A DNA stretch of 55,723 bases from a virus (taxonomy: Duplodnaviria; Caudoviricetes), in IMG/VR virus record IMGVR_UViG_3300025389_000003, positions 1 through 55,723 of that record, one strand, 5' to 3'. The position numbers and the translations under genes are program-made. The notes beneath the pieces were generated by a model. It ran no database searches. It was not told where the DNA came from and saw only the letters and a list, made by a program, of their open reading frames with translations. The stretch's first letter is position 1. Each line of letters starts with the position of its first letter. Positions 1,633-48,082 of this stretch are shown piece by piece.

Positions 1633-2088
1633 TTAAACGTATGTTTTAAACGACAGTGGGTCATCTGTGACCTTAGCTATCAGTTCGTGGTCGTTGATAG
1701 TCATAAACAAAACGGGTTCGGTGTCGGCTTCTTCACCAGGAACTGGTCTTTCCCACCTGTCTCCACCCCATTTTGGAACCCTTACAAAGTCACCAATCTC
1801 AGCCCATGAGCCTTCTGGCCATGGTTGCATGGTGTCTCTGTTCTTAAACGCAAGCGGACCTATGGCCACGACCTTACCGATCATGTTGTTCCACTTCTCG
1901 TTTTCTTTGGTTTCATCAACGATGATGATTCGTCCTGCGCGTTTTTTAATACGGCGTAATTGAACGATTACACGACCACCATATGGACGTTGTCCAGGGT
2001 CTACATCAGGGAATGCCCATACTAGTTCAACTGGGTCAGGCACGCCCGCATTTCCCTCAATCGTAGGGATTTTCTCTTTTTCACTCAC
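1633..2088 (-). CDS. groES: GroES/Cpn10-like co-chaperonin
   Basis: P.G.RVIV, GRIIIVDE, GKVVAIGP, GDFV..PKWGG, INDHELIAKV match the Cpn10 pattern; GTG start at 2088 follows AAGGAG. Confidence 0.9.
   Translation of the reverse strand: MSEKEKIPTIEGNAGVPDPVELVWAFPDVDPGQRPYGGRVIVQLRRIKKRAGRIIIVDETKENEKWNNMIGKVVAIGPLAFKNRDTMQPWPEGSWAEIGDFVRVPKWGGDRWERPVPGEEADTEPVLFMTINDHELIAKVTDDPLSFKTYV
2022..2034. promoter_or_regulatory. 13-bp palindrome site CTAGTTCAACTGG (inside groES)
   Basis: Perfect match to genome-wide CYAGTTSAACTRG. Confidence 0.8.
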
Positions 2089-2102
2089 TACTCTCTCCTT
2101 AA

Positions 2103-2480: not shown

Positions 2481-4941
2481 TTGGGGCTCCTTGAGGTTGT
2501 GGCGCGGGCGCCTGTGGTTGTGGCGCTTGCGCCATGGGTTGCATAGCAGGCGGTTGTGCCTGTGCAATGTTTTGGATTGTCTCATGAGTCAGCTTAGCAT
2601 TCTCAATTGCAATCTTTGTTTGGTTGTCCATTGTTGCCTTTTGCATATCTGCTTGCAACTTGGCTTGATCATACTGTGACTTGGCTTGGTCGGCTTGGGT
2701 CTTGCGCTGTGTCTCAGCCATGCTTGTGTCTTTGACCACTTGCTCAGCAGGTGGCAACTGACCTTGTGATGCTTGTTGACGTTGTGTAGCAATACCAATG
2801 AGCTTTTGAAATTGTGGAACAAACGCTTGGAAGACGTCTTGCGTATCCATTTCTACGTGCGCACCAACTACTGTGTACAGCTTGTCGATGTGCGCAGTCA
2901 AACTTGGATCATCGTAGTTGTCTACAGGCTTGCCACCTTGTGATTGTGCTACATAAGCATTACTTCTGTTCAAGTACCACAATGTCATATGTTGCTTGAT
3001 GTGCTCAATCAAGTTATTGACAAAGTTGGGATCTGCAAATGGGGATTGGCCAAAGAATGGGTTCAATCCAAATTGCAAATGATCTTGAATGTGCGCTATG
3101 TGATCTTGTTGCATGTACGCATAGGCGGGTTGGCCTAAGAGCATGGCAGCGTTCTCATCCGCAGATGTGCGTTGCTCAGGAGAAGGCACGTCCTTCATCA
3201 ACTCATTGATGTTGGGTATCTTCAATTGCTTCAAGAATCTAGACAGAACCATATTCATATTGAACTGGTCAGGATGTTTTTCTGCCAAAGCTAACACCGC
3301 TTGGTTTTGCGCCATGCGTTGTGTCTCAGAAAAGATGTGGGGATCAGAGACTGGCACAACATCCGTGTTGCGCGAGAAGTCTTCTCTTTCAATATCCAAG
3401 TCAGCCACTACCTCTGACTTGCGCATCTCGTCAAAGTGCCAACGGTTGAGTCGGCATAGGATTTTGAGGACGCGCGCCTGAGATTCATGCAGCCTAGCGT
3501 GAATAGCAGAAAATACCGCTGCACCTTGCTCAATCAAAGCCTGAGTTGTACCGACAGGCGCCTGAGCGTTAACGTCAGCGATTTTTTCTTCTGACGTGCT
3601 CACGACTCCCTTTGTTGCGGTATCTAACCAGCCAAGGAGCTCAAACAACACTGCGGATGGGGGATTAAACGGCATAGGCATAGCTATTTGCCTGATGTCC
3701 TGAACCCCAGGCGCTCCCTCAATCTCAACAATTTGTGTGACGTCTACTTGTTGACTTTGTCCACTGATCTTTGCTCCTTTGAGCTTGAGCATGGTGGCTG
3801 CATTATTGATGTGAGCGCTATCCAACAATGCACGCAAGCTACCAGTAAGAGCAGCACTAAGACCGCCAATAAGGTGAGGCAATCCGATTGCATATGCACC
3901 CCTCCATGGAATGAACTTGAATTCAACGATCCAATCCAACTTGGTCATTGTTTCATCTTGTTCTTCCCAGTTTCTGTACAAGCCCACCACTTCATTGTCA
4001 ATCTCATCAATCATGAGAATATATGGAGCTGACTTGCCCTTGGAATACTTGTCTTCTTGTAATTCTAAGAACGTGTAAACGTGGTAGACGTTGCGGATAC
4101 CGTCTTGGTTTTTCTCAAACTGCTTGCCCTCAATCTTATTGTTGGCTTGCTCTACCTTGCCGATATCAATGCTTTCCGTAGCCTTAACATAGTTGATGTC
4201 ACGATACATGCCACTTCTGATGCGTCTTTGAAACTCATACTCGGTGATTTCGTGTAGTTCCGCTGCTCTTTGTGCGGTGTAGAAGTTGGTGGCAGCAAAC
4301 GGCAGTATCACGCGGTCAATTGGCAAAAACTCCACGCATGGGCGCTTTTTCTCTTCATCAAACCACATCTTAAAGTATTGTGATCCACCCAAAGGCAACT
4401 GAGTCAGCAACTGTTCTTGCTCGTCTCTGAACTCTTCGATCTGCTCGGTGATCTGCCAGTTCAAATAGTCACGCTTGCGCTCAGCTTTTTGTGACTTGAT
4501 TTCATCCATCTTGCCCAAAATCTTTGTTCTGACTGGGCCATCAGGTGGGAACATCTCTTTGATTGCACGAGCAGCGAAGTCTACACAGCCTTCTGCCATG
4601 GCTGGGTGAACTACTTTGGATGCGCCCATGAAGGTTGCGCCACCAGGGGCATCATTGCCCATGCCTGTGCGCTTTAATCCTTCTTCGTATTGCTTGTCCC
4701 TTAACTCACGAGCTTCTTTGTCGCTCTTGATCAAGTCCATGTATCGCTGAATAAGACCTGATAGTTCATGGCTATCATAAGTCTCAGCCATGTTGCTGTA
4801 GAAGTCAGGATTTTCTTCAGGCCCACTGTCAGGCATGGTGACAATTGCTGAACCGTCAGGCTGTTCTTCTGTTTCTATTTCAGGCAAATCAACAATGGCT
4901 GAGCCATCGTCTTGCTCTTCAATGTTCATTTCGTCGTTCAT
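2467..4941 (-). CDS. Portal protein
   Basis: 824 aa; HP..AE...F.ARA..E.FP..GPV, PVGTT.ALIEQG..VFSAIH.RLH, VVPVSDP motifs; Q/P-rich tail; downstream of terminase. Confidence 0.85.
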   Translation of the reverse strand: MNDEMNIEEQDDGSAIVDLPEIETEEQPDGSAIVTMPDSGPEENPDFYSNMAETYDSHELSGLIQRYMDLIKSDKEARELRDKQYEEGLKRTGMGNDAPGGATFMGASKVVHPAMAEGCVDFAARAIKEMFPPDGPVRTKILGKMDEIKSQKAERKRDYLNWQITEQIEEFRDEQEQLLTQLPLGGSQYFKMWFDEEKKRPCVEFLPIDRVILPFAATNFYTAQRAAELHEITEYEFQRRIRSGMYRDINYVKATESIDIGKVEQANNKIEGKQFEKNQDGIRNVYHVYTFLELQEDKYSKGKSAPYILMIDEIDNEVVGLYRNWEEQDETMTKLDWIVEFKFIPWRGAYAIGLPHLIGGLSAALTGSLRALLDSAHINNAATMLKLKGAKISGQSQQVDVTQIVEIEGAPGVQDIRQIAMPMPFNPPSAVLFELLGWLDTATKGVVSTSEEKIADVNAQAPVGTTQALIEQGAAVFSAIHARLHESQARVLKILCRLNRWHFDEMRKSEVVADLDIEREDFSRNTDVVPVSDPHIFSETQRMAQNQAVLALAEKHPDQFNMNMVLSRFLKQLKIPNINELMKDVPSPEQRTSADENAAMLLGQPAYAYMQQDHIAHIQDHLQFGLNPFFGQSPFADPNFVNNLIEHIKQHMTLWYLNRSNAYVAQSQGGKPVDNYDDPSLTAHIDKLYTVVGAHVEMDTQDVFQAFVPQFQKLIGIATQRQQASQGQLPPAEQVVKDTSMAETQRKTQADQAKSQYDQAKLQADMQKATMDNQTKIAIENAKLTHETIQNIAQAQPPAMQPMAQAPQPQAPAPQPQGAPNGNI
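4456..4468. promoter_or_regulatory. Near-match palindrome site CCAGTTCAAATAG (inside portal)
   Basis: One mismatch to CYAGTTSAACTRG; could be chance. Confidence 0.35.
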
Positions 4942-8710: not shown

Positions 8711-8719
8711 GTCACACCC

Positions 8720-8732
8720 CCAGTTCAACTAG
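8720..8732. promoter_or_regulatory. 13-bp palindrome site CCAGTTCAACTAG (intergenic, after terL)
   Basis: Perfect match to CYAGTTSAACTRG. Confidence 0.8.
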
Positions 8733-8738
8733 TATTCC

Positions 8739-10181
8739 CTACTGAGAGTAGGGGTTTTGCTTGCTACGTGCGTTGTAGATCTCCGCATCGGTGATGTCCT
8801 CTTGCGTGATCTCCTCCCTTGGAGGCGCGTCAATGCTGATCCACCCCGCGTCCCTTAAATACCTCAACCCTTGGCTGATGCAGTCCACGAACTCATCATG
8901 CGCTGACTCAGGAAATGAACAGATCTGGCTCACCATGCCCTCCGCCCAATCCCTTACGTATCCTTTCCTCACACTGCTCTCAGGTATCCATACGCGACCA
9001 GCCTTGATGATGTTCGCCACAATGGATAGCCTTTGCACCTTATCTGCGCGACCAGGGTTATAAGCCTGAACTGGTATGTGCGCCCTTTGCAAGTCTTGGA
9101 TCAATGATATGCCTGCGGACTTATCCTCAACCAAGACGAGGTCAACCAACTTCCTGTCTTTCCCTTCTCCATATACGACCTCATACTCTTCGAGAACTTT
9201 AGGTCGCAAGTCTGGATACTGTAAGTGTTCTTGCCAACAATCCAAGATGAGTACAGACATCCCCCCATCCAAGGGCTTGAATACTGCCAATGTGATTGAT
9301 CCCGTTGGATCGTTGTATGTTTTATCTGAGGTGGCGCAATCATAGCTTTGGACGATGTATTCAAGCTTAGGGAAAGCCTTACCATCAGGCCATAGCCTGA
9401 ACCAATCCCTCTTGACTATTCCACCCTCCTCGGCGTCGATCAGCTCCGCATAGATCTCCTGTCGGCCTAGCTTCATCCCCTCATAGGACATGATCTGCTT
9501 CTTGAAGTTTTCCGCCAAGTTGTCGATGTTAGCGTATGTGGATGCACGCGTGATGACAACATCATCCCCTTCGCGCCCTACTAGTTCAACTATTAAGTCT
9601 TTAGGTTTAGGAGTTGTTGAGCAAATCAACTTGGTCTTCTTACCCAAGCGCATACCGAACTGTATCTGATCCCACGCTTCCTGAAGGTATTCCCATGCTG
9701 CCAACTCATCTAGCCATCCCCCATGGAACTGTGGCCCCCTGAAGCGCTCGGGCTCGGAGGCTGGGATTCCCTTGATGAACGATCCATTGATCAAATGTAT
9801 CTCATGAAGGCTTGAGTTGTATTTCTCTACTAGTTGAACTGGGATTACATTGAGGAGTCCTGAGTCACCCTCAAAGCATGTTCCCTTCAAGTCACCGCTA
9901 GTCGGAGCCGATACAAGCCATCTCGTGTTGGGATTGTTCCATGCCCATGATGCCAACGTCTCAGCCGATGCCCTAGTCTTCCCTGCTCCACGGCCAGCGA
10001 GCATCAGCCATATGCTCCACCAATCCCCTGATGGCTCAATCTGATGCTTATGCGCCTTCTCCCTCAGCCATTGATACTGCCATAACCACACGATCTGATC
10101 TATGGCGCTGAGCTTGGTGAACTCGGCTTGGGTCTTGGGGTCCATCAGGACCTCGTCAACCAACTCTAGCGTCTGGCTCAT
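8739..10181 (-). CDS. terL: Terminase large subunit
   Basis: Walker A LAGRGAGKT, Walker B GWLDE, CSTTP coupling motif, nuclease SYDCA...VEDKSAG...HDEFVD. Confidence 0.95.
   Translation of the reverse strand: MSQTLELVDEVLMDPKTQAEFTKLSAIDQIVWLWQYQWLREKAHKHQIEPSGDWWSIWLMLAGRGAGKTRASAETLASWAWNNPNTRWLVSAPTSGDLKGTCFEGDSGLLNVIPVQLVEKYNSSLHEIHLINGSFIKGIPASEPERFRGPQFHGGWLDELAAWEYLQEAWDQIQFGMRLGKKTKLICSTTPKPKDLIVELVGREGDDVVITRASTYANIDNLAENFKKQIMSYEGMKLGRQEIYAELIDAEEGGIVKRDWFRLWPDGKAFPKLEYIVQSYDCATSDKTYNDPTGSITLAVFKPLDGGMSVLILDCWQEHLQYPDLRPKVLEEYEVVYGEGKDRKLVDLVLVEDKSAGISLIQDLQRAHIPVQAYNPGRADKVQRLSIVANIIKAGRVWIPESSVRKGYVRDWAEGMVSQICSFPESAHDEFVDCISQGLRYLRDAGWISIDAPPREEITQEDITDAEIYNARSKQNPYSQ
9581..9593. 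promoter_or_regulatory. Palindrome site CTAGTTCAACTAT (inside terL, one mismatch)
   Basis: 12/13 match to CYAGTTSAACTRG. Confidence 0.65.
9830..9842. promoter_or_regulatory. 13-bp palindrome site CTAGTTGAACTGG (inside terL)
   Basis: Perfect match. Confidence 0.8.
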
Positions 10182-17038: not shown

Positions 17039-17893
17039 GTGCTTAGCCTTGCAAAGCATAATCTTTTTTACAACAGAAATGATTCCTCTGTTTTTATGCA
17101 AATCATTCGCGTCCCACCCTTCTTCGTCAGCCATTGTCCATGGCATACCAGTTGAACTAGCAATGCTCTGACCTGTGCCTGACTTGTCGTTGTCCGCAAA
17201 CACATATTTTTTGCCTTGCACCTGATCAATGACATTCAGTAAATTGCTCGCGCTAAAACAAACCACCACTGAGCCCTTCATCCCACACGAACGCATGGCT
17301 TGGTGGACGCTGAGCCCAGTCGCATACCCTTCGACAAACCATATGTCGTCATTCTTCTCAGTTCCTAACCAGTACACAGCATTCTTGGCTCTCATGCCGT
17401 AGAGCATTTTCTTCTCATACTTCATCTCTTCAGGCACAAAGTAGATTTCTTGATAGCCTTGCAGCTTATTGGTCTTCACGTTCCTCATGGGGATCAGTAG
17501 GCTGTTTTTATATACAAAACCTTGTATATCTTTAAAGCCCTTGAACTCAAGATAAGGGTGACTTTCCACCTTAGATATCTTTAAGATATCTTCTGCCCTT
17601 TGAGCCACGACGTCATACTGCTTTTGCTGATCAGACTGCTGAGCACGCCGTTTTTCGAACCACTGGCGCTTTTGTTCTTCCGTCCATGGTTTGGCATGGG
17701 GATCCTCATACCAGATCGCCTTGGCCTCGCCTGACCAATCCATGACCCACCCACGCTGACCATCCCAAAGATAAGCGCCGTTACCAGATTTAGGCTTGGC
17801 AACAGTCCCAGTTCTTTTGATAGAGTCAGATGGGTAAAGTTTACTGGGGTCTATTTCAACCCCATGCGCTCGCGCAAAGTCTATGAAGCTCAT
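17009..17893 (-). CDS. TOPRIM DNA primase
   Basis: HPYL..KG, L.IPM, VEGYATG.S, V.CFSA.NL, ADND..G.G, DAND motifs. Confidence 0.85.
   Translation of the reverse strand: MSFIDFARAHGVEIDPSKLYPSDSIKRTGTVAKPKSGNGAYLWDGQRGWVMDWSGEAKAIWYEDPHAKPWTEEQKRQWFEKRRAQQSDQQKQYDVVAQRAEDILKISKVESHPYLEFKGFKDIQGFVYKNSLLIPMRNVKTNKLQGYQEIYFVPEEMKYEKKMLYGMRAKNAVYWLGTEKNDDIWFVEGYATGLSVHQAMRSCGMKGSVVVCFSASNLLNVIDQVQGKKYVFADNDKSGTGQSIASSTGMPWTMADEEGWDANDLHKNRGIISVVKKIMLCKAKHLTTQINKEV
17148..17160. promoter_or_regulatory. 13-bp palindrome site CCAGTTGAACTAG (inside primase)
   Basis: Perfect match. Confidence 0.8.
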
Positions 17894-19009: not shown

Positions 19010-20526
19010 GATCTTCCCTTCTTCCATGCAATGTTCATTTGTTGAATTTTGTTGTACACATTTCTGTTGATTTCTACATTAGGCGCAGTCGTAAACTTCC
19101 ACTCTGACTCACGCCCCGTGATTTGCTTAAATAAGTGCCACGCACGTCCTGACTGTGTCTCAGGCTTGCTGTGGTGCCTTGCGTAAGTGCAAACTTGATT
19201 CCATAGGTCTTGAGCGCTATTTGCAAGTTTCTTTTTATTGCGTCCCTCGCCAATAAAGATTTCTTGCATATGACCTGGTATCACCTCAGTCATCTGTTTG
19301 CTCACCCTCTCAAATCCACACGACATACAGCGCTTGTGGAAGGGCTTGTAACCACAGCGTGGGCAACCAAATAGCTCAAACTCCTCTTTGACGCGAATCT
19401 TCTTGTCGAGCTTCTCACCGTCGTCTAGCTTCTCTAAGCCATTGAAGTAGATGTCGTTAAAGTCCTCAAAGAACCTCACAATGTTTCCGCTAAAGTCCAA
19501 GAGGTAGCAATCTTTCTTACCAGTCTCAGGGGACGATCTAAGCCCACGCCCCCACATCTGAATAGCTGTAGACAACGATTTCCTTAAAGGTCTTGCGTCA
19601 CAGATACACCCAACGTCAGGCACGTCAAAGCCCTTTGCCAAGGCTTCTACGCTAATCAAAACTTTTAATTCACTATTTGGCTCTCTGTAGTGTTTTAGCA
19701 ACATTTCACGATCTTTGGCGTTGGTGTCACTGGTGAAGACTGCAGCCAACACGCCAGCCTCAATGAACTGACGGCAGAGCTCCTCGCAGTGCCTGATCGT
19801 GGCGCCAAAGACAATCGTCTTGCGGTTCTCGCCAAAACGTTGCCAGTCCTTGACCACGTCACCCACGATCTTGAGTTCGCGCTCCTCGGCAGCTCGATCA
19901 GTCCACTCGCCTCCTGACGTCTCTGCGCCCGTCATATCAGGCTTTTGGCACGAAAAAATCCGCATAGGTACCAACACCCCATGCTGAGTGAGATCGTGCA
20001 TTGTGGTGGCGTTTACGATGTTGGTGAATATCTTTCCCAAGCCTGTAGTAAATGGTGTGGCAGATAGACCAATGACACTAGACTTGGTTGTCTGGGCAAA
20101 ATTTGTCCAACTCTTGTAAGTCGTGTGAGCCTCATCGACCACCAAGACGTCGACCTGTGGCCAAAACTGTCGCTTGGCGATGGTCTGAATACTAGCAATT
20201 TGAAATAGTTCATCTGGTCTTCTCCTCCAGTGATTGGCTTGGATGATGCCGTGGTTGGTCATGCCGTAGCGGTCGGCCACCGCAGACGTTTGGTTGATCA
20301 AGGTAGTCCTGTCGCACAGGAATACTGCACGCTTACCCCTTTGAATGGCTTCGTTGCAGATACGCAACCCAAGGTAAGTCTTTCCAGCGCCCGTAGGCGC
20401 CATGATGATCTGATTCTTGTGCCCTTGCCTAAACCCCTCGCGTAAGGCGTTGTGGGCATCAATCTGAAATTGACGAGGGGGTGGGAATCCATTATCACGC
20501 TCGCTTTGCGCTAGGACGTTGTTCAT
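19006..20526 (-). CDS. Superfamily 2 DExH helicase
   Basis: APTGAGKT, VVDEAH, GLSATP, KGFDVP, QMWGRGLR; C-terminal CPRC..CMSC Zn ribbon. Confidence 0.92.
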   Translation of the reverse strand: MNNVLAQSERDNGFPPPRQFQIDAHNALREGFRQGHKNQIIMAPTGAGKTYLGLRICNEAIQRGKRAVFLCDRTTLINQTSAVADRYGMTNHGIIQANHWRRRPDELFQIASIQTIAKRQFWPQVDVLVVDEAHTTYKSWTNFAQTTKSSVIGLSATPFTTGLGKIFTNIVNATTMHDLTQHGVLVPMRIFSCQKPDMTGAETSGGEWTDRAAEERELKIVGDVVKDWQRFGENRKTIVFGATIRHCEELCRQFIEAGVLAAVFTSDTNAKDREMLLKHYREPNSELKVLISVEALAKGFDVPDVGCICDARPLRKSLSTAIQMWGRGLRSSPETGKKDCYLLDFSGNIVRFFEDFNDIYFNGLEKLDDGEKLDKKIRVKEEFELFGCPRCGYKPFHKRCMSCGFERVSKQMTEVIPGHMQEIFIGEGRNKKKLANSAQDLWNQVCTYARHHSKPETQSGRAWHLFKQITGRESEWKFTTAPNVEINRNVYNKIQQMNIAWKKGRS

Positions 20527-21323
20527 TTTTTACCTTTTAATTTATCAAGTTGTTTCTGAAGTGACTTGACCATCTTGATGGCCTCATTCTTTTCGTTCAT
20601 CAGCCCCACGAACCGCATCTCCATTTGTGCAATCATGTGGTTCAGGCGCTCAATCTCAGCGTGGGCAGTCTTTAAGGCGTCGTCAGAATCCAACAACTTG
20701 AACATCGCCTCTTGATTGGCTTGCATGGTCAGCTCAGCAATCTTGAGTTCTTCCTCGTCAGGAGCTGAACCATCTTGTGGCTCAATACTTTCTAGTTTGA
20801 CGTCATTGCTAGTTGAACTAGTATCTTCCATGCGTTGCCTGAGTTTGTTCTGATAGTGCCTCTCGCGGTTTTCTTTCTGTCTTTCAGCTATTTCAGGGTC
20901 ACGGACGGCAGCCACAAAAGACTCAGACACGTGGCATCGTTTGGCAATTTCATAGTTGGACTTCTTGTACCATTCCTCCCAAGTCAAACACGTCTCAACC
21001 TTATAGCGTCTGTCTCGAATGGACAGTGGCTTGCCGTGGGTTTCATTCGCAATCAAGGCTTTCTCGCGTGCATACTGAAGCGCGCCTGACTCCCACAACA
21101 CGTCAATCTTTTTGATGCCAAGAATCTTGTAGGCGTGATAGCGGTGAAAGCCGTCTGTGAGCCAATATGAAACCCCATCAAATACTAGTTCAACTGGGGG
21201 AAAGACGTTGTCAAGTTTCATGCGCTCGACAATGTGATACACCCAGTCTTGATCAACAACCGTACGCATTTGCGTACCGCCATCAATTCTGATTTCGTCA
21301 ATGTTTATTTGTTTTTTTTGCAT
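20523..21323 (-). CDS. ParB/Srx-fold (CTPase-like) protein with HTH and C-terminal coiled coil
   Basis: I.ID.I..D..TQ.R, PPVELV, arginine patch DGFHRYHA, N..HG.PL, HTH SNYEIAKRCHVSESFVAAVR; GAGG RBS. Confidence 0.8.
   Translation of the reverse strand: MQKKQINIDEIRIDGGTQMRTVVDQDWVYHIVERMKLDNVFPPVELVFDGVSYWLTDGFHRYHAYKILGIKKIDVLWESGALQYAREKALIANETHGKPLSIRDRRYKVETCLTWEEWYKKSNYEIAKRCHVSESFVAAVRDPEIAERQKENRERHYQNKLRQRMEDTSSTSNDVKLESIEPQDGSAPDEEELKIAELTMQANQEAMFKLLDSDDALKTAHAEIERLNHMIAQMEMRFVGLMNEKNEAIKMVKSLQKQLDKLKGKK
20809..20821. promoter_or_regulatory. 13-bp palindrome site CTAGTTGAACTAG (inside ParB-like gene)
   Basis: Perfect match. Confidence 0.8.
21185..21197. promoter_or_regulatory. 13-bp palindrome site CTAGTTCAACTGG (inside ParB-like gene)
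   Basis: Perfect match. Confidence 0.8.
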
Positions 21324-21333
21324 TGTTTCCTCG

Positions 21334-23382: not shown

Positions 23383-23408
23383 AAACCCCAGTTCAACTGG
23401 GGTTTTTT
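23383..23408. terminator. Terminator between convergent operons, built around the 13-bp palindrome (CCAGTTCAACTGG, 23388-23400)
   Basis: AAACCCCAGTT-C-AACTGGGGTTTTTT. Confidence 0.75.
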
Positions 23409-23409
23409 A

Positions 23410-27173: not shown

Positions 27174-29507
27174 TTATCCTTTCGCCATCTTGAGATAGTC
27201 AAGAGGTGATTTTGCTTTCGGTGGTATTTTTGTGTCAGGAGCACTTCTCTTGTGTGCGCGTAGCTCTTCACGCATTTTATCCAATAATTTCGATCCTAGC
27301 TTGTTGTCTCCGCCACCTATGGCAGTCACAAAACTAGCTGGAAACACATACTCTCCATCAGCAATCTTGGCGGGGACAGGATTCCCACCAACTGCCATTT
27401 TGTGAGGTATTTCGTGATGAAACTTACTCAAAACTTGTGCGCCTGCTTTGCTTGATCCGTCACCAAAAGAGGCTACCGTGTCAGCATCCATCACATAGTC
27501 TCCATCGTGGAGCATGGCTGGTATATCGTCGCTTTGGCCAGTTCCTTTGCCGTTGGCATAGTATCCAGTCAAGCCTGTGATGAATTCAGGATTGTGGCCC
27601 TTTGGAGCCGCTTCCTTATAGTGGTCAGGCAAACCCCCATGCGCTAAAGCATTAGTGGGTTGCGCGTCCCTTCTGATGCCTTGCTTTAGATATTTTAAAG
27701 GACTTAAAGTTGCCGCCTGTCCTATGCCAATTGATCCTTGAACTGGTGCAGCACTTAATAATCTTGGGGCAGATATGTTGGCACTTGGTTGATTGGCTAA
27801 AAAAGCTTTGTATGCATCTGATAATGCAGTTCCACCATCGGCCATAGTTAAAAACTTTTCAGCTACTTCAGGTTGATTCATCTTAATCTCTTTATTAAGT
27901 TCTGCCAAATCAGCTTGGGATACTTGTGTGGGCTGTTCTTGCGCTTGCGTAGGCTGAGACATAACTTTTGCCAACTCAGGATCAAGTTGATCAAAAATTT
28001 GTTTCAGGGCCTGTAAGTGAGCAGGATTTCCATACACAGGAGCGCCTGCCAACATGGTCGCAACCATGGGCAACCCAGTTGAACTAGTAGTTCCACCTGA
28101 CAGGGGTGAACTTGATGCCGTTGAAGTGGTTGAAGTTGATGTCTTGGTGGCAGGGGTTGTTGTTTTTGTGGTTGTTGGAGTTTTTGTTGTGTCAGTAACA
28201 ACTGCAGGGGTTACCACATTGTCAGTTGTATCTTTTTTTGCAACAACAGTAACTGGATTCAATTTAACAGCATTTGGGTCTTCAACAACAGTATTGTCAC
28301 TAACTGTGTTGTCAATTCCACTAGAACCAACAACAGTAACTGGTTGTAATTGTGTCGCATTAGGATCAGCTATGACCGCGTCATCAGGAGTTGTTGCGTT
28401 TTTCTTGGCCGTAATAGTAACTTTTCCAAGAGGACTGTTTGCATCACTTGTATTCGTAGAGCTTACTGTGTAATCAGTTGGATCAGTGCTTTTTGCAGTG
28501 ATTTGAACATTGCTAAGTGGACTATCTGAGCTTGGGCTAGTAGCAACAGTTTGACTTGTATCTGTGGCTAAAGGTGAGGTAGTTGTAGAAGTTTGGTCTG
28601 TAGGTGTAGATACATTACCCTGTGAGACTTGGTTTTTATACTCTTCACGCCCTGCGGCTATGGCCAAGTTAATTGCCACTTGAGTGGCTGGCTGACCAGC
28701 CAACACGCCACCTATGATTTTGGAAACAGCAATTTGTCCTGAAGGACTTAAATTCTGAATGCCTGGTATTTGATCAGTGATTGCAGATACGCCACCACTG
28801 ATCCCACCTGCCATCAATGCAGTTAAAGGATCTGCTTTACCTTGGGATGAAATTTCTGCTGCAGTCAAAGATCTGGCGGCTCCAGCACCTGCGCCTTGAA
28901 GTGCTTCTCCCAACAAACTAGGGTCTTCGCCTAAAGTTGATCCTATGGCCTTACCTACAGTTTGACCTGCCGCATTGCCTGCAGTGGAGGCCAGATACGA
29001 AAGCGCTCCAGATGTAGCTGCTTTTGTTAAGTCTCCTGTCTGCGCATAAGTATCGGCTGCAGAGACATAAGGCAATAAGGTTGGGTCGATGATTGAAGCC
29101 GCAATCATTGGGATTGGACCTAAATCCCTAGCGATGTTTCCAATAAAACCGCCCTTAGATCCGCCTGTGTATGTGACTTGCGTGCTTGGATCGGTAACGG
29201 GTTGCACTGCTCCCGTATTGGGATCAACACGAACAAATGTGTTCATGGTTCCACCAGTAGAACCAGACATAATTGCGTATACGTTTGGCGCTACTTGTTG
29301 GATATTTCCATTGATGAAATTACCTTGTCCATCAATTAAACCTGTTGATGTAATTGAATTTCCGTTGTCATCAACGCCACCAGTAATCGTGCCGATCTTG
29401 GCTTGACCAGTTTGGATAGCGTTATAGGTATCATCAAAGGTCTGACTAGCCGTAGACCAAATGTCTTGCGCTAATGGTGACGATGATGCGTTGGCTGTTG
29501 TGCTCAT
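27174..29507 (-). CDS. Large virion/ejection protein with duplicated C-terminal 'G.G..SD.IPA.L.DGEYV' module
   Basis: 777 aa; Gly/Ala hydrophobic region, Thr-rich linker, MADGG/LAHGG/MAVGG motifs. Confidence 0.6.
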   Translation of the reverse strand: MSTTANASSSPLAQDIWSTASQTFDDTYNAIQTGQAKIGTITGGVDDNGNSITSTGLIDGQGNFINGNIQQVAPNVYAIMSGSTGGTMNTFVRVDPNTGAVQPVTDPSTQVTYTGGSKGGFIGNIARDLGPIPMIAASIIDPTLLPYVSAADTYAQTGDLTKAATSGALSYLASTAGNAAGQTVGKAIGSTLGEDPSLLGEALQGAGAGAARSLTAAEISSQGKADPLTALMAGGISGGVSAITDQIPGIQNLSPSGQIAVSKIIGGVLAGQPATQVAINLAIAAGREEYKNQVSQGNVSTPTDQTSTTTSPLATDTSQTVATSPSSDSPLSNVQITAKSTDPTDYTVSSTNTSDANSPLGKVTITAKKNATTPDDAVIADPNATQLQPVTVVGSSGIDNTVSDNTVVEDPNAVKLNPVTVVAKKDTTDNVVTPAVVTDTTKTPTTTKTTTPATKTSTSTTSTASSSPLSGGTTSSTGLPMVATMLAGAPVYGNPAHLQALKQIFDQLDPELAKVMSQPTQAQEQPTQVSQADLAELNKEIKMNQPEVAEKFLTMADGGTALSDAYKAFLANQPSANISAPRLLSAAPVQGSIGIGQAATLSPLKYLKQGIRRDAQPTNALAHGGLPDHYKEAAPKGHNPEFITGLTGYYANGKGTGQSDDIPAMLHDGDYVMDADTVASFGDGSSKAGAQVLSKFHHEIPHKMAVGGNPVPAKIADGEYVFPASFVTAIGGGDNKLGSKLLDKMREELRAHKRSAPDTKIPPKAKSPLDYLKMAKG
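28075..28087. promoter_or_regulatory. 13-bp palindrome site CCAGTTGAACTAG
   Basis: Perfect match. Confidence 0.8.
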
Positions 29508-31664: not shown

Positions 31665-33652
31665 GGGTTTCCAGTACCTCTGACATCACCAGTTTCAATG
31701 CTAAGAATAATTTTTCCGACTTGGTAGTCACCATTAAAAGTATTGCTCTCAAACCTTAAACGCATCTCACGACGCTGTTCACGCATGTCAATTTTAAGAG
31801 TTGTTGGATCAAATGTATAAGGGTCTGATGGGCGGTCTATGTCATCCGCATAACCCTTACCCGTCACAATCACATCCATCTGTCCAGTTTGGATGAAGTC
31901 AGGCTCAACGCGCTCGCATCGTGTCCACATGTTCTCGCCTGGTCCTTGAGTTGAGCCAACTAGCCCTGCACTTGATCCCAAAACAGGTGTCTCAAATGCT
32001 GAATAAATTGCATCAACATGAGTCAAGTATGTTTGATTTTTACCAGTCTCATGTTGCCAAATCGTGTAGCCGTTTACAGTCATCAACTCGCCGGACACGC
32101 TTGTACTTGTAGGATTGTAAACTGTATAGGTTCCTGTGCCTCCAGTACCGCTTCCAAGCGCTGTAATCACCATTTGGTCAGGAACACCTGCGCCTTGGAT
32201 GATTTGTCCTACAGCCAAAGATCCAAAAACCATCGAAGAGACTGTCAATGTAGTGCCTGAAACCGACCCTTGAAACTCAACAATTGTGTTGGGATTGTAG
32301 TCACCCCATATGGGTTTGGGAAACACTTCAGTAAACCACCCTGCTGATCTTTGCGCTCCAGGTGCAGATCCTGCGTCATACCACACCTTTTCACGCACGT
32401 TATAGATGATGGCATCGGTACATTCAGTGGCGTCACCTCTTGGATAGAACCACCAAATTTCACCAAAACGAGGCACTTTACTGGCCCAAACCTTTTGGCG
32501 TTGAGAAAGGTTGATGTTGTCAAAGAAATAGTTTTGGTTCATGGTATTGGGTATCTCTTGTACAACACCGTTGTACATCAAAAAACGATCAACACCTGCC
32601 CAGTAATAAATTCCATCGTACTCGATCACAGAGCTAGAGGACATAATTGAACTCTGTTGAGTGATCAAGTCATAGCGCCAATAGAACGTAGAAGACGTAG
32701 TTCCTGTGGTCACCGTAGTGGGTGTGTAGGACACGCGTATCACGCTATCAAGCGACCAAAACAGCCCGGCAGGAGAGGTAGTACCACCACGCAGTGGCAA
32801 GCCCTTCACAATCTTTGTAGAGGCCACGTTGTTGGCATTTGCGTCAGCGCTAGTCCAGTTGTTGAAGTCGCCTGCAGCGCAGTTTTGTATCAAACCATTG
32901 TTGCCATAAACAAACAAGTAAGGGTATAACATTACAACTCCACCGCTTACCGAGATGTTGTTGTCAAACGTCAATGTGGCTGAGCCTGATGCCGTCGCAG
33001 GCAAACTCAAGACAACCGTCCAAACCCCAGCCACTAAAGAAGACGAGACTATGGTTGTGCCTGCTTGTATGCCTGTGCCTGAAACCGATACACCAGGCCC
33101 CATGGCCACATTAGTAGTCGCAAACGTAACACTAGTTGAACTAGTAGTGGTAGTTCCTACTGCGGTAAAAACACCGATTGGGGCTAATGATGTGCCTGTA
33201 AATTGGCCATACAAGGGACGAGTATTGGTGGTACTTGTGATGTACTGAAGATTCTGACCGGGGTGCGCAATCAACTGTAATGTTCCACCGCCCGTGGAGT
33301 CATACCCGATGTCAAACTGCCAAAGATTGGTTGCGTTGGGTGTGAAATAAGAAGAACTAATTGAGAATGGAGTTGGGCCAGTTCCAATCGCTGTCACGTT
33401 GTTGGTCACCCATTGCTGAAGACCTGCACTGTATCCTGAGATGATATAGTTCAAGCCATTTGTGGCGCTCATGATAAGCCCTCTTGAGGCTCCAGAAGCA
33501 TTCAAAAATGCGCCTGAGTAACCGCCTATCTTTCTAGGCAATCCACGCTGAAAGCGCACCCACTGGCCGTCCACGTAGGAAGCTGCAGCGAACTGCGTAC
33601 CATCGCGCTGAATCCCTGCGGGTACCGTAAGTGATAGGACTTTAGCGGTCAA
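31661..33652 (-). CDS. Tail nozzle / DNA-stabilisation protein (P22 gp10-like, tentative)
   Basis: 663 aa; DG.WVRF.RG.P.KIGG, F.EIWWFYP, YN..E..WY, R...R...LRFES. Confidence 0.6.
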   Translation of the reverse strand: MTAKVLSLTVPAGIQRDGTQFAAASYVDGQWVRFQRGLPRKIGGYSGAFLNASGASRGLIMSATNGLNYIISGYSAGLQQWVTNNVTAIGTGPTPFSISSSYFTPNATNLWQFDIGYDSTGGGTLQLIAHPGQNLQYITSTTNTRPLYGQFTGTSLAPIGVFTAVGTTTTSSTSVTFATTNVAMGPGVSVSGTGIQAGTTIVSSSLVAGVWTVVLSLPATASGSATLTFDNNISVSGGVVMLYPYLFVYGNNGLIQNCAAGDFNNWTSADANANNVASTKIVKGLPLRGGTTSPAGLFWSLDSVIRVSYTPTTVTTGTTSSTFYWRYDLITQQSSIMSSSSVIEYDGIYYWAGVDRFLMYNGVVQEIPNTMNQNYFFDNINLSQRQKVWASKVPRFGEIWWFYPRGDATECTDAIIYNVREKVWYDAGSAPGAQRSAGWFTEVFPKPIWGDYNPNTIVEFQGSVSGTTLTVSSMVFGSLAVGQIIQGAGVPDQMVITALGSGTGGTGTYTVYNPTSTSVSGELMTVNGYTIWQHETGKNQTYLTHVDAIYSAFETPVLGSSAGLVGSTQGPGENMWTRCERVEPDFIQTGQMDVIVTGKGYADDIDRPSDPYTFDPTTLKIDMREQRREMRLRFESNTFNGDYQVGKIILSIETGDVRGTGNP
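33132..33144. promoter_or_regulatory. 13-bp palindrome site CTAGTTGAACTAG
   Basis: Perfect match; extends to the 15-bp palindrome ACTAGTTGAACTAGT. Confidence 0.8.
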
Positions 33653-42390: not shown

Positions 42391-42400
42391 TGTTTCCTCT

Positions 42401-44136: not shown

Positions 44137-45338
44137 GTCACATTAGTTCCTGTTAAGAGCCATTGAGTTGTTGCAATCTTGATGCAGTTTGCTACACCAT
44201 ATTGCGCTAATGTTCTTGATCCTGTGCTACCACCCTGTGCCCATGTCAATGTGTCAGAGTTTATAGCAATTGTTACATTGCTTGCAGACATATTGATAAA
44301 TTGAATGACTGTGCCTAGAGGATATGCTACAGAAGCATTGGCAGCAATTGTAAATGTACGTGCGTTGGCGTCCGATGATGGGTGAAAAATACAGTACCCT
44401 GCATCACCCAATACAGTTGTGTATGCGGCTGATTGACTGTTTTGTGGAATGCTCAAATAACCAAGACTTGCACTAACAGGAGGCAATGTCATGGTGGTGC
44501 TATCTGTACCAGTAAAAGTGATTGAATTGTTAGCTGTTAATGTTTTTCCATCAGCTATGGTCAAAGTTGAGCCTGTAGCTGGTGCAGTCAAAGTAACTTT
44601 ATTAATTGTTGTTGCTGATGCAACGCCCAAAGTTGGAGTTGTCAAAGTTGGGCTTGTAGCCAAGACAATAGAACCCGAGCCTGTAGTTGTATTGCCTAAA
44701 GCTGTGACTGTACCGCTTGTTGGTAGTGTCAAAGATGTTGTTGCTGTTGTTGTTAGTGTTGTGGCAAAAGCTCCTGAAGTAGTTAAATTACCACCAAGAG
44801 ATAATGAGCCAGAACCAAAGGTTAAAGAAGAGCCAGAACCAGTTGTGGTTAACAATGATCCAGTAGTTCCTGATGCAACGTAAGTTCCAGAGGGAATGAA
44901 CGCATACTTACCCCATGAACCTGCAGCAGTTGAGTTGTCTTCTACCCAAAGATAAACCATATTGCCTGGGTAAACTGTAGTCACCAAAGTAGATGAGTTA
45001 TCGTTTACGGTAACGTTACCAGTCGCATCGTTATCAATGATAAACACTTGACCTGCAGGCAAAGTATTTGCAGCAGGCAATTGAACTGTCTGTGTTGTTG
45101 ACCCACTGATCTTTTGGATTCGTGTGGAAAGAGCAGTTAATGTGGTGGTAGTTGCGGCTGCAGTTGTTACTGTTGAGCCACCAATTAAATTGACTACGCC
45201 ACTAGAATTTTTATAAAAAATACGGCCGTCTGCATAATTGATTGCAAGTTCACCGTTGCCTAAATTACCAGATGAAGGCGTGTTGGTTGATGTACCACTG
45301 TTGTACAAATATATTGGGGTATAGCCTGATGCTGACAT
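44133..45338 (-). CDS. Tail fibre protein
   Basis: N-terminal P....L..GELAIN..DG.IFYK module; C-terminal IPQNSQ..AYT.VL.D...YP.GT. Confidence 0.7.
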   Translation of the reverse strand: MSASGYTPIYLYNSGTSTNTPSSGNLGNGELAINYADGRIFYKNSSGVVNLIGGSTVTTAAATTTTLTALSTRIQKISGSTTQTVQLPAANTLPAGQVFIIDNDATGNVTVNDNSSTLVTTVYPGNMVYLWVEDNSTAAGSWGKYAFIPSGTYVASGTTGSLLTTTGSGSSLTFGSGSLSLGGNLTTSGAFATTLTTTATTSLTLPTSGTVTALGNTTTGSGSIVLATSPTLTTPTLGVASATTINKVTLTAPATGSTLTIADGKTLTANNSITFTGTDSTTMTLPPVSASLGYLSIPQNSQSAAYTTVLGDAGYCIFHPSSDANARTFTIAANASVAYPLGTVIQFINMSASNVTIAINSDTLTWAQGGSTGSRTLAQYGVANCIKIATTQWLLTGTNVT

Positions 45339-48082
45339 TAGAATGTTCCTCCGTTGATACCTGCTGTCAAGGTATTATTTGTGTAATTGTATGTCAGGGA
45401 TGTGTTTGTGTTAACCCCAACGTTGCCTGTTGCTGTTGAACTAAAGTGAAGGTAATTGGTTGAACCCGATCCTGCAGTTGCAGCTACATTGGTTGCGTTT
45501 GTTGCGTTTGTTACTGCGGTTGTTCCAATTACAGAAACCACTTGAGCTGCGGTTGCTGCACTAAATGCAGATGTCCCACTACCGTATGCTAGACCCGTAA
45601 GTGTCGCAACGCCAGTACCGCCAGAAGCAACAGGTAAAGTACCAGTAGTAAGAGCCGAACTTGAGGACGCATAAACCGCACCTCCTGATGTAAATGATGT
45701 TAACCCTGTACCACCATTTGTAGTTGCAAGCGTACCTGCTAAAGTAATACTACCAGTTGAACTAGTATTTGGAGTAAATCCTGTTGTGCCAGCGCTAAAT
45801 GATGAAACTCCTGCTGACGCTGATTGCCATGATGCAGTTGTACCATTAGAAGTCAACACATAGCCATTTGACCCAATTCCAAGCCTTGTAGCGCTATTTG
45901 TACCGTTTCCAATGATTAAATCACCAGTAGTGGTAATGGGGGACAATGCATTGAATGCAGCAGAAGCGGTTGTTTGTCCTGTTCCACCATTTGCTATTGG
46001 CAGTGTTCCACTTGTGATTTGTGATGCAGAAATTGCAATTGAAGTAGAACTAGCTGCAGTCAATTGACCTTGTGCATTTACTGTGAATGTACCAACAGAA
46101 CTTGCTGAACCATATGAGTTGGCAGTTACAGCAGTATTTGAAATGCTGAACTGTGTTCCAGTTAAAGTAAGTCCTGTGCCTGCGGTATAAGCGCCAGGTC
46201 CAGCAATTTGTGCAAACACCAAAGGTGTTGTGCCAATTGTGATTGGAGCATCAGTAGTTTGTACCCACTGAGTGGAAGCGTTTACAGTTCCACTGATAAT
46301 AAAAGTTGTATCGCCTGGGGCTACTTCATTCTGTCCAGTACCTGTTTGATCATAGTCTGTTGCACGAGTCAATACCCATCCAACTGATCCTGATCCCACG
46401 CTGGTAACAGTATAAATACCATTATATTGACCTGAAGATTCGTTCTTAACTAAAATCCTTTGGCCAACGCTTGGGCTTCCGCCATCAATTGCTAAAGTAG
46501 CAAAAGGACTTGTTTTGGTGATTGTTGCGCCAACTCCAGATGATCCGTTGTTGTAAGTAACTGTTCCCAAGTCAGCAGTCGTTGCATAGTTACAAGCTGC
46601 GTGATAGTTTACATTCGAGACTGCAGCATCCACATATTGCTTAGTGGCCAACTGAAGTGCAGATGTTGGGTCTTGTGTTACTGAAACTGAAGTCAAGCCA
46701 GCAGGCGTCAATGATGTTGCGCCTAATGCTATATTTGTTGTTCCTAACGTGATTGAACTATTGGTTAATGAACTATTGCCAATATTACTCAATGTGTTTG
46801 TTGAGCCACTGATTGACTTGTTTGTCAATGTATCGGTTGTTGCTCTACCTACCAAAGTGTCAGTGCTTGAGGGTAGGGTCAGTGTTCCGCTATTGACAAT
46901 TGACGAAATGACTGGAGAAGTCAATGTCTTGTTTGTCAGAGTCTGCGTTCCAGTCAAAGTGGTGACAACTGTTGTATCAATTGCAATCGTGCCTGATACT
47001 GTGATTGTTCCACCAGTCAATCCTGTGCCTGCAGTTATAGATGTAACTGTTCCTGCACCAGTCAATGTTTGCCAAATGGGATTACTTGAGCCTTGGCTAG
47101 TCAAAACTTGACCTGACAATCCAACTGGAGTCACAGCAAAGCCAGTTCCGTTTCCGTAAAGGACGCCTCCTGCAGTTGGGGCTGTAGACAAGCCTGTTCC
47201 ACCATTTGCAACACCTAAGACACCACCTAAAGTGATAGCGCCTGAGCTTGCTGTTGAGGGTGAAAGACCAGTAGTACCTGCGCTAAATGTGTTTACAACC
47301 GCGCCACCTGAGCCAATTGCATTTTGCACAAAAGCAGTTGTTGCTATTTGTGTGGAATTAGTTCCAGTTGATGCTGTGGGCGCACTTGGTGTTCCAGTCA
47401 AAGTAGGACTGTTTGCCAATACTACTGCGCCACTTCCTGTCGTTGACGCGCTAGAGGCTGATGTAGCCCTTCCATACGCATCAAATGTGACTGTTGGTAG
47501 TGTGTATGACCCTGCGCTTACTGCGGTGCTTGCAAGGCCAATTTGAGGGCTTGTAGACCCATTCGTGACTGATATTTGTCCTGAGACGCCAGTCACTGCT
47601 ACTGTGCTCAAAGCTGTGCCATTTAGCGCCAATAAACCTGTTCCAGTTGTGCCAACTAAGTTTTGCAGAACTGTTGATAGGCTGATTGTTGGGTTGCCAG
47701 TTGTGCCATCACCATTTGCAACTGATACGCCTGATCCACTTGAAGTAATTTGTACGTTTGTGAGCGTAGTGCTATTGGTTTTGACTTGTATTCCTGTGCC
47801 AGAACTGATCAACGATGCCAATGCACCTGTGACTGCTATGGTATAACTACCCAAAGAACCGCCATCTGTTGCAGTTAAACCAGTTGAAACTGCTATTTGA
47901 CGACTATTTGCAAGGCTGGTTTGTTGGCCAACCGTCAAAAATGTTTGAGTTTGTGTGGGCTGAGATGCTATGGCGCCTGTGGTTGTCTGAACCGTCACGC
48001 CATTTTGCACAATGGGAACTGACTCGTTACCAGTTAACGCCCCTGCGGTTGGCAATTGTGTAATTGTGACTTGTCCACTCAT
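45338..48082 (-). CDS. Long tail fibre protein
   Basis: 914 aa; repeats GTL.VANGGTG, FSAGTTG..P, TLTNK, ATKQYVD, RILVKNE....NGIY; ends INGGTF. Confidence 0.8.
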   Translation of the reverse strand: MSGQVTITQLPTAGALTGNESVPIVQNGVTVQTTTGAIASQPTQTQTFLTVGQQTSLANSRQIAVSTGLTATDGGSLGSYTIAVTGALASLISSGTGIQVKTNSTTLTNVQITSSGSGVSVANGDGTTGNPTISLSTVLQNLVGTTGTGLLALNGTALSTVAVTGVSGQISVTNGSTSPQIGLASTAVSAGSYTLPTVTFDAYGRATSASSASTTGSGAVVLANSPTLTGTPSAPTASTGTNSTQIATTAFVQNAIGSGGAVVNTFSAGTTGLSPSTASSGAITLGGVLGVANGGTGLSTAPTAGGVLYGNGTGFAVTPVGLSGQVLTSQGSSNPIWQTLTGAGTVTSITAGTGLTGGTITVSGTIAIDTTVVTTLTGTQTLTNKTLTSPVISSIVNSGTLTLPSSTDTLVGRATTDTLTNKSISGSTNTLSNIGNSSLTNSSITLGTTNIALGATSLTPAGLTSVSVTQDPTSALQLATKQYVDAAVSNVNYHAACNYATTADLGTVTYNNGSSGVGATITKTSPFATLAIDGGSPSVGQRILVKNESSGQYNGIYTVTSVGSGSVGWVLTRATDYDQTGTGQNEVAPGDTTFIISGTVNASTQWVQTTDAPITIGTTPLVFAQIAGPGAYTAGTGLTLTGTQFSISNTAVTANSYGSASSVGTFTVNAQGQLTAASSTSIAISASQITSGTLPIANGGTGQTTASAAFNALSPITTTGDLIIGNGTNSATRLGIGSNGYVLTSNGTTASWQSASAGVSSFSAGTTGFTPNTSSTGSITLAGTLATTNGGTGLTSFTSGGAVYASSSSALTTGTLPVASGGTGVATLTGLAYGSGTSAFSAATAAQVVSVIGTTAVTNATNATNVAATAGSGSTNYLHFSSTATGNVGVNTNTSLTYNYTNNTLTAGINGGTF
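45753..45765. promoter_or_regulatory. 13-bp palindrome site CCAGTTGAACTAG
   Basis: Perfect match. Confidence 0.8.

Follow-up and report, generated by a model that had tools for sequence, protein, structure and literature searches.

The DNA analysed here, referred to as the window, is the whole 55,723-base IMG/VR virus record IMGVR_UViG_3300025389_000003, a complete 55.7-kb phage genome (estimated completeness 100%, terminal overlap of 67 bases) along which copies of a short palindrome are scattered. A greedy longest-ORF rule gave 75 open reading frames (ORFs), nearly all on the minus strand, which were named with PHROGs (all 75 ORFs) and Pfam (a subset of 60 proteins). The early leftward operon carries, in this order, genes for a Cro-like protein of the YdaS family with a helix-turn-helix (HTH), a ParB-like protein, a helicase of the SF2 and not the DnaB type, and a Toprim primase. 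Packaging and virion functions are represented by terL, a portal gene, a GroES-like gene, the major head protein, tail genes and lysis genes; a RuvC-like resolvase, an exonuclease, a short C5-methyltransferase and three homing-endonuclease-like genes were also named. No ORF was named integrase, repressor or KorA in these scans, and none was named ParA, in agreement with a first reading of the sequence alone (the sequence-only reading), which had described a phage devoid of ParA and integrase. We argue below that the palindromes are very probably sites bound by the phage's own ParB-like protein.

The palindrome, CYAGTTSAACTRG, is present in 10 perfect copies, compared to 0.01 expected from 100 dinucleotide-preserving shuffles (maximum 1); matches number 12 when one mismatch is allowed and 15 when two are. 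The ten perfect copies and the two one-mismatch copies listed in the sequence-only reading were all found exactly at the positions given there (Table 1), and the array it had observed is real. All of the commonest 9- to 12-mers in the genome derive from the palindrome. The site is wider than 13 bp: it covers 17 bp, consisting of an 8-bp half-site, a centre base that is G or C in all ten copies, and the mirror half. The 20 half-sites follow [T/C][A/C]C[T/C]AGTT and come in two flavours, TACTAGTT and CCCCAGTT, freely combined into TACTAGTT-S-AACTAGTA, CCCCAGTT-S-AACTGGGG and a mixed form. The flank rule proposed earlier, [AC]...[TG], holds on both sides in eight of the ten sites.

Eight of the ten copies lie inside ORFs and are read in two frames, P-V-E/Q-L-V and T/A-S-S-T. 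When synonymous codons were shuffled within each of the 75 ORFs, a procedure that keeps proteins and per-gene codon usage, 1000 shuffles yielded a mean of 0.12 coding copies (maximum 2) and none reached the eight observed; if the copies at 23388, which the shuffling leaves untouched, and at 8720, which it touches in part, are included in the count, the mean is 1.43. The motif is thus enriched over a codon-preserving control. Coding copies arose by substitution in place at variable residues, without insertions or deletions. In the GroES-like gene, two relatives (G004 and G010) keep P-V-E-L through different codons and have no site there, indicating that selection acts on the DNA. Together with the use of two reading frames, this bears out the earlier proposal that the DNA and not the peptide is selected. 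The array had also been described as hidden inside coding sequence. This is true of the window but does not extend to the family: of the 86 sites in the first twelve genomes compared, 26 are intergenic where 3.9 would be expected, and 26 is a lower bound as greedy ORFs overstate coding.

The ParB-like protein comprises a ParB/Srx-fold N-domain, an HTH, a disordered linker and a C-terminal coiled coil. In an AlphaFold2 model (mean predicted local distance difference test, pLDDT, of 78) the HTH helices cover residues 129-136 and 140-147, helix 140-147 being the second HTH helix, directly after the N-domain; the C-terminus forms two long helices, 196-218 and 222-271. The HTH reads V-S-X1-X2-F-V-A-x-x-R, where X1 and X2 are the first two residues of the second helix (E140 and S141 in the window). 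Foldseek searches against the Protein Data Bank (PDB) returned ParB-CDP (6sdk, E 2.7e-8) as the best match, together with Myxococcus ParB, Caulobacter ParB, Noc and KorB (8qa9), of which Myxococcus ParB, Noc and KorB reached a probability of 1.00. These alignments span 137-151 columns, the length of the N-domain plus HTH, and PHROG 1033, 'ParB-like partition protein', matched residues 11-146 (E 1.6e-18). From the palindromic form of the sites we infer that the protein is a dimer. Its N-domain carries a His-rich pocket that is invariant in the family (DGGTQ.R, DGFHRYHA, N..HG), and many phage ParB/sulfiredoxin proteins are found in BFVD, among the matches listed also other phage proteins that combine ParB with an HTH, such as that of Vibrio phage VpV262. 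The N-terminus, MSNEETMQKKQ, is devoid of an LG(K/R)GL-type motif, which is described as the ParA-stimulating N-terminal peptide (PMC12704722). The same source describes orphan ParB-like proteins as widespread in phages and reports that the ParB fold binds NTPs besides CTP (PMC12704722).

Relatives of the window phage derive from freshwater metagenomes, and a related portal gene is present in at least 509 contigs. With a profile built on the ParB-like protein, 136 IMG/VR stretches were confirmed to be relatives, of which 79 loci were kept. We worked on 57 core loci, each of at most 21 kb except the window and MW202545.1, which were taken whole, and on 17 genomes read whole (the window, MW202545 and G001-G015; completeness 66-100%). 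MW202545.1 is the closest GenBank record, with a nucleotide identity of 71% along part of the replication module. It contains the 9-bp core of the window once, but has TACTAGTC-W-GACTAGTA in eight perfect copies. De novo palindrome counts in the relatives revealed sites of equal build written in different letters, with the half-site variants TACTAATC, TACTAATT, TACTAATG, TAGTAGTC, GAGTAATT, GTGTAATC and CCCCAGTT, and further GCGTAGTY, YCGGTT, CCTGGTT and some even-spaced forms. Copies of a genome's own palindrome number, in the order window, MW202545 and G001 to G015, 10, 8, 5, 5, 5, 12, 9, 4, 4, 5, 5, 14-15, 9-10, 2, 8, 4 and 5; the 16 relatives therefore hold 2-15 copies each, and 15 of them at least four. 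Each of these 16 relatives has a palindrome of its own; co-variation across related genomes is the test that the sequence-only reading had proposed. In 29 of the 57 core loci, the 13-mer that forms the copy within the ParB-like gene is found, letter for letter, at least twice. Other searches brought little: a single-protein locus search returned one 98%-identical relative, and a scan of the collection with CCAGTTSAACTAGTA hit at least 110 stretches, mostly by single chance matches, and led to two near-identical relatives. In one locus, L116, which is 97.7% identical to the window, the three sites it contains are intact, too few positions for conservation statistics.

Co-variation between protein and site was assessed on 53 of the 57 core loci. 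L122 (two overlapping palindromes, ambiguous) and L170 (truncated) were left out, as were L158 and L161, whose palindromes are even-spaced. At X2, the position of S141, Pro accompanies A at base -3 of the half-site in 26 loci and Ser or Thr accompanies G in the remaining 27, without a single exception among the 53. At X1, the position of E140, Lys, Arg or Ala is found with G at base -6 (10/10 loci) and Gln with C at the same base (30/32 loci), while Glu or Asp is found with C at base -5 in 6/8 loci. The other two are the window and the near-identical L116, whose in-gene half-site has T at -5; other copies in the window have C. The variants form a series in which Q-S goes with CTAG, Q-P with CTAA, K/R/A with G at -6, E/D with C at -5 and H with GTGG. 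With its Glu-bearing helix and two half-site flavours, the window appears to show a specificity switch in progress.

A scan of all columns over 47 non-identical proteins ranked S141 first for base -3 (mutual information over entropy, MI/H, of 1.00) and E140 first for base -6 (0.83), the runners-up for these two bases being residues that the in-gene site itself encodes. For base -1 the leading columns, tentatively, are residues 159 and 163 of the helix that follows (0.87 and 0.85). In the same loci the best column of the helicase reached 0.56 for base -3, 0.45 for -6 and 0.48 for -1, and that of the Cro-like protein 0.45, 0.43 and 0.37, respectively; on these alignments, neither of the adjacent proteins predicts the half-site bases. 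The Cro-like protein is encoded upstream in 55 of 81 loci, and its recognition helix is near-invariant across all palindrome classes. Trees were built without the HTH and linker columns, the more careful one from the ParB-like protein and the helicase, and each trait changes 10 times on them. On the well-supported branches of the careful tree, all independent pairs agree (5/5 for X2 with base -3, 4/4 for X1 with base -6), as do 4/4 on the quick tree. The A-P helix arose twice, each time with GTGTAATC, and the R-S helix three times, each with GTAGTY. In the complete genomes, copies located tens of kb away follow the helix residues. Co-variation over 53 loci and the column scan thus strongly support the earlier attribution of the palindromes to the phage's own ParB-like protein.

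Two places are occupied almost throughout the family. The linker-coding part of the ParB-like gene (relative position 0.60-0.68) holds a full palindrome in 16 of the 17 genomes, the last one, G014, having three half-sites only, and the linker peptide tracks the DNA from genome to genome (TSSTS, TSQTS, TNLIS, GLTE etc.). AT excess around the in-gene site, averaged over 45 genes, is at most 0.10 within 400 nt and 0.08 at the site itself. A site, often a doublet, also flanks terL in all 16 records that hold this gene (G007 has no terL): directly after the terL stop in 14 genomes, and between a terS-like gene and terL in G005 and G008. The intergenic gaps concerned have little other content and no room for a promoter. 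In G005 (L207-L209) six tandem copies of TACTAATTAATTAGTA with 19-bp spacing occupy positions 29987-30093; the half-sites of this array abut without a centre base, and it resembles a centromere or an iteron set. Within the 914-aa gene, the sites of four genomes, belonging to three variants, fall on one alignment column.

G012 can be regarded as a natural exchange. In this complete genome, whose portal is about 78% identical, the ParB-type protein shares only its C-terminal part with the family and resembles that of the Acidovorax phage AP1. None of the family palindromes was found in G012; its only repeated palindrome, TCCGCACC-S-GGTGCGG, has two copies, one inside its own ParB-type gene and one directly after terL. 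AP1 itself, which infects a Paracidovorax and was the sole hit to a cultured phage among the GenBank phages, was considered as a model of the family and rejected: it shares the helicase and the C-terminal coiled coil, but its N-domain and HTH are different and it has no enriched palindrome. This second ParB-type protein, with a DGWHRY box and another DNA-binding part, is encoded at 8605-9429 in AP1 (L226) and at 42014-42859 in G012. Only the coiled coil is common with the window's family and in both cases the gene precedes the same helicase; the C-terminal module may talk to the replication genes.

Table 1. Palindromic sites, ParB-like gene and other named genes of the window.
Feature	Position	Strand	Remarks
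Palindromic site in GroES-like gene	2022..2034		frame P-V-E-L-V
One-mismatch copy in portal gene	4456..4468		
Palindromic site filling the gap from terL stop to next gene's start	8720..8732		family-recurrent place
One-mismatch copy in terL	9581..9593		
Palindromic site in terL	9830..9842		frame P-V-Q-L-V
Palindromic site in primase gene	17148..17160		
Palindromic site in ParB-like gene, linker	20809..20821		encodes T-S-S-T-S; family-recurrent place
Second palindromic site in ParB-like gene, N-terminal domain	21185..21197		
Palindromic site as stem of a terminator-like bidirectional hairpin	23388..23400		between convergent operons
Palindromic site in 777-aa gene of unknown function	28075..28087		
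Palindromic site in 663-aa virion protein gene	33132..33144		
Palindromic site in 914-aa gene of unknown function	45753..45765		
ParB-like protein gene	20523..21341	minus	272 aa from TTG; homologues suggest ATG at 21323 (266 aa)
Predicted recognition helix ESFVAAVR, residues 140-147	20901..20924	minus	E140/S141 co-vary with half-site bases -6/-5 and -3
Helix 149-172 after HTH	20826..20897	minus	residues 159 and 163 co-vary with base -1 (tentative)
Cro-like YdaS-family HTH gene	21334-21552		early leftward operon; PHROGs/Pfam
SF2 helicase gene	19006-20526		early leftward operon; PHROGs/Pfam
Toprim primase gene	17009-17893		early leftward operon; PHROGs/Pfam
terL	8739-10181		PHROGs/Pfam
Portal gene	2467-4941		PHROGs/Pfam
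EndoVII/HNH-like homing-endonuclease-like gene	31155-31664		among structural genes
GIY-YIG homing-endonuclease-like gene	34875-35384		among structural genes
HNH homing-endonuclease-like gene	48454-49092		among structural genes

The sequence comparisons make it very probable that the palindromes are cognate sites of the phage's orphan ParB-family protein, the predicted binder. A dimer would sit on each site with one HTH per 8-bp half-site, Glu at 140 would tolerate both TACTAGTT and CCCCAGTT half-sites, and the conserved N-domain pocket could serve as a nucleotide-dependent switch. Site-bound dimers would then nucleate a larger complex on the phage DNA without a ParA partner, in the manner of KorB on its operators and Noc on its sites, and this complex would mark and organise the phage chromosome. 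The two near-obligatory anchor points, in the protein's own gene and beside terL, suggest that it controls the early operon in which it is encoded and that it has a link with the late packaging genes. We propose such a KorB/Noc-like role without ParA because the fold, the palindromes, the scattered or clustered sites and the site in the protein's own gene all fit it. The nucleating role taken by itself is plausible but tentative; the overall explanation, in which the phage's own ParB-family protein binds the sites and forms a nucleating, chromosome-organising complex, seems to us modestly probable.

Several points weigh against this explanation. At the sequence level the resemblance to ParB is faint: profile searches against the PDB gave E-values of 0.012-0.35, solved ParB structures appearing only at 0.04-0.35, and Pfam ParBc matched none of 20 family members at E <= 0.1. 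Canonical ParB proteins bind CTP through an arginine-rich GERRxRA box and an ENxxR box. Here, in 20 of 20 sequences, the position of the arginine box reads DGFHRYHA and the second box AN..HG; one Arg is retained and the other Arg positions are His, a degenerate form of the arginine box. The absence of any ORF named ParA also counts here, and the position of the ParB-like gene between the Cro-like gene and the helicase and primase genes favours a replication function. As for the co-variation, the half-site of each of the 53 loci was taken from the in-gene copy, at a distance of about 100 nt from the HTH codons; nine half-sites were corrected by hand with the help of other copies, and distant copies were compared with the helix residues in the 17 genomes only. 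Sign tests on the supported branches gave p values of 0.06 and 0.125, with low power. L150 and MW202545 have identical 24-residue HTH segments and a different base -1, so the HTH does not read the whole site. Finally, the even-spaced palindromes of G011, G014 and G015 are outside the co-variation counts, and that of G011 (H-T helix, GTGGAAGC|GCTTCCAC), numbered from the dyad, would break the Ser/Thr-with-G rule.

Given the two fixed places and the position of the gene before helicase and primase, a function in replication or packaging has to be taken seriously as a rival. As an origin-binding replisome organiser and fork barrier, like SPP1 gp38 or lambda O, the ParB-like protein would use the in-gene site as origin, and the terL-side and other sites as secondary origins or as barriers triggering concatemer synthesis. 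The linker site shared by 16 of 17 genomes is where such an origin would be placed, and the order Cro-like, ParB-like, helicase, primase is found again after the CI/Cro region of AP1, a temperate phage; in lambdoid phages the gene of the origin-binding protein is located between a Cro-like gene and helicase/primase genes. A RuvC-like resolvase and an exonuclease are present, and the only other candidate initiator (21645-22289, NGO0469 family) has DUF2815 and DUF669 as its nearest Atlas clusters. The second fixed place lies among late genes, like oriR of SPP1 (PMC6316719, PMC3485210). However, no AT-rich unwinding element accompanies the in-gene site (at most +8 AT points at the site over 45 genes), the gene contains one or two palindromes and no iteron array, and the 10 to 15 dispersed sites of some genomes are many for origins. 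In addition, the adjacent helicase is not of the DnaB type, the fold is that of ParB, Noc and KorB, and we know of no initiator with a ParB fold. On balance we consider a replisome organiser rather unlikely. A ParB-fold protein that couples replication to packaging, being neither a partition nor a silencing factor, is a minority reading of similar weight: from an origin-like site within its gene it would launch replication together with the neighbouring helicase and primase, and by way of a barrier next to the terminase gene and more sites in the late genes it would afterwards impose the switch to concatemers for packaging. A function in packaging alone, by which the protein would label the phage DNA for terminase or set entry points of the pac kind, is improbable in our judgement. 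It accounts for the terL-flank site in all 16 terL-holding records, often as a doublet, for the six tandem copies between the terS-like gene and terL in G005, and for the new matching site that G012 made at terL after exchange of its ParB type; but the protein is encoded in the early replication operon, apart from the terminase genes, and the remaining sites are scattered over structural and replication genes.

Two further possibilities are, in our view, very improbable. A catalytic ParB/Srx domain might nick or cut at the palindromes, producing site-specific interruptions as in T5-like phages. The invariant His-rich pocket would suit an enzyme, and both PHROGs and record annotations name relatives 'ParB-like nuclease domain', but the word nuclease in this domain name is historical, the structural neighbours are DNA-binding NTPases and sulfiredoxins, and symmetric sites with a coiled-coil dimer fit binding equally. 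Alternatively, the sites might be bound by another factor (the Cro-like HTH protein, a terminase subunit or a host protein), the correlation with the ParB-like protein reflecting linkage. The in-gene copy is indeed physically linked to the HTH codons, and in the mycobacteriophage Corndog it is an HTH gene, not the ParB-like gene, that harbours a comparable repeat. Against linkage, the Cro-like recognition helix hardly varies across classes and the tightly linked helicase stays far below S141 for base -3; distant copies follow the helix residues in complete genomes, and a host factor cannot explain phage-specific variants. The C5-methyltransferase and the homing endonucleases were set aside as site readers, as specificity maps to the ParB-like helix. 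A relation to the phage ParB proteins associated with 5mYOX was likewise rejected, by context: the window's 2OG oxygenase (41677-42390, matching PF13759) is 20 kb from the ParB-like gene. These 5mYOX-associated ParBs are described as having no obvious DNA-binding domain and acting with neighbouring TET/JBP-type oxygenases (PMC13229309).

Among known systems, plasmid RK2 offers a close parallel. The KorB operator is a 13-bp palindrome present at 12 sites on this plasmid. KorB is a sliding clamp that exerts long-range silencing from dispersed operators, including some far from promoters (PMC11790492, PMC13768133). KorB and the window protein have in common the ParB family, an HTH, palindromes with a central G/C dispersed over the replicon and the 8qa9 fold match. 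Unlike the window protein, KorB has IncC (a ParA) and KorA as partners and a canonical arginine box, whereas the window has no gene named ParA, KorA or integrase, a DGFHRYHA box, a long C-terminal coiled coil and a phage replicon. Noc, an orphan ParB paralogue, nucleates on 16-bp palindromes scattered around the chromosome (PMC8429893, 10.1101/2022.02.28.481274). Scattered palindromes are thus shared with Noc, whose structures are among the top fold matches and which features a membrane-targeting helix and a CTP switch. Bacillus subtilis has a parS site of Spo0J/ParB inside the parB gene (spo0J) itself, and the inverted-repeat (IR) sites of phage N15 are dispersed over its genome. N15 SopB has four such sites, IR1-4 (PMC7205306). 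SopB resembles the window case as a phage-borne ParB-type protein with several separate inverted-repeat sites; unlike the window, which has no named ParA, N15 possesses SopA and is a plasmid prophage in need of partition. BisD of ICEclc and VirB of Shigella, gene regulators of the ParB-like CTP-clamp type, are loaded at parS-like sites and exert their action at a distance (PMC12409273, PMC10770331). They share with the proposed role a ParB-like protein without partition function, but have one or few sites and are cellular or ICE regulators.

Replication proteins provide another comparison. In lambda, ori is located in the linker-coding part of gene O. The DNA-binding domain and the in-gene origin sites of lambdoid phages co-vary in a type-specific manner, and to our knowledge neither SPP1 gp38 nor lambda O is a ParB-fold protein. 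In SPP1, gene 38 contains oriL, the late region contains oriR, and a model based on fork stalling has been put forward (PMC6316719). Likenesses to the window are the sites in the protein's own gene, the adjoining helicase genes and, for SPP1, the second place among late genes; these origins are, however, made of direct repeats with an AT-rich element, whereas the window has palindromes without an AT-rich flank and the family up to 15 sites. Dispersed repeats are also known from mycobacteriophages. Cluster O phages carry a 17-bp repeat, TGTTCGG-N3-CCGAACA, at more than 30 dispersed, dyad-symmetric sites, many of them intragenic; they are described as having no integrase or parAB, and a dimeric binder with a role other than control of transcription initiation was predicted (PMC4351075). 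Their repeat is like that of the window in being dispersed, dyad-symmetric and intragenic, but the relevant passages of PMC4351075 identify no binder. In 24.8 kb of Corndog we counted 24 copies of this repeat, none in the ParB-like gene 90 and one in the HTH gene 76 (L322, 2617-2633); judged by the in-gene rule, gp76 is a candidate for its binder. The article on Cluster O also mentions the stoperators of Cluster A mycobacteriophages (PMC4351075). They too are spread in many copies through phage genomes, but are asymmetric, oriented with transcription and bound by a prophage repressor, whereas the window has palindromic sites and no gene named repressor or integrase. In phiC31, conserved inverted repeats are present as many repressor-site copies across the genome.

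Other features of the window were noted in the course of the analysis. Copy 23388 is part of a 10-bp hairpin (23383-23405) with T-runs on both strands, and its sequence may serve both as terminator and as protein site. Close to it, about 3 kb (window 23311-26341, genes of 398 and 484 aa) is swapped in L116 (4795-8030) for unalignable sequence, with flanks 97.7% identical on one side and about 95% on the other; the module adjoins the terminator site. CCAGTT occurs 50 times on the plus strand compared to 15 expected from base composition, its complement AACTGG 19 times, and CTAG is rare (112 vs 209 expected). A second inverted repeat, TCTAAC-N5-GTTAGA, is found with 0-1 mismatch at 12092-12108, 16550-16566 and 21565-21581, where it overlaps sigma-70-like hexamers at the heads of early operons. 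Eight matches with up to two mismatches were counted in the window (1.65 expected), and many relatives have 2-3 per locus, often about 90-120 bp from the ParB-type site. This repeat is probably the operator of the Cro-like protein, since both are conserved across the family. The gene at 21645-22289 (plus strand), which adjoins the exonuclease, carries the NCBIfam label 'phage replication initiation protein, NGO0469 family' (213 bits). The named Atlas clusters nearest to it, DUF2815 and DUF669, are families that we take to bind single-stranded DNA (ssDNA), and the label may be wrong, the product possibly being an ssDNA-binding or annealing protein instead. Some of the three homing-endonuclease-like genes are missing from relatives, and the C5 cytosine methyltransferase (12408-13118) has just 236 aa, spanning the first 180 of 324 profile positions. 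In the interval between terL and portal, the protein encoded at 7805-8458 beside a 956-aa protein contains an ART-PolyVal ADP-ribosyltransferase domain (E 4.7e-13) and may be an injected host-modifying enzyme.

As far as sequences can tell, the system is of a known kind, that of ParB, KorB and Noc, and what is new is the unusually clear record of protein-DNA co-evolution in a freshwater phage family. Full-text searching of the literature returned no paper in which dispersed cognate palindromes were connected with a phage ParB-like protein. The analysis provides a concrete predicted DNA target for an orphan phage ParB-like protein. The large family represents a natural series of specificity switches from which a recognition code can be read, permitting precise mutational tests; such a code could yield orthogonal pairs of ParB and site for DNA labelling. 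The two near-universal places, in the protein's own gene and at the terL flank, make its role directly testable. If the protein does couple replication to packaging, this would be a new job for the ParB fold and would offer a testable explanation for the dispersed palindromes of other lytic phages, such as those of Cluster O.

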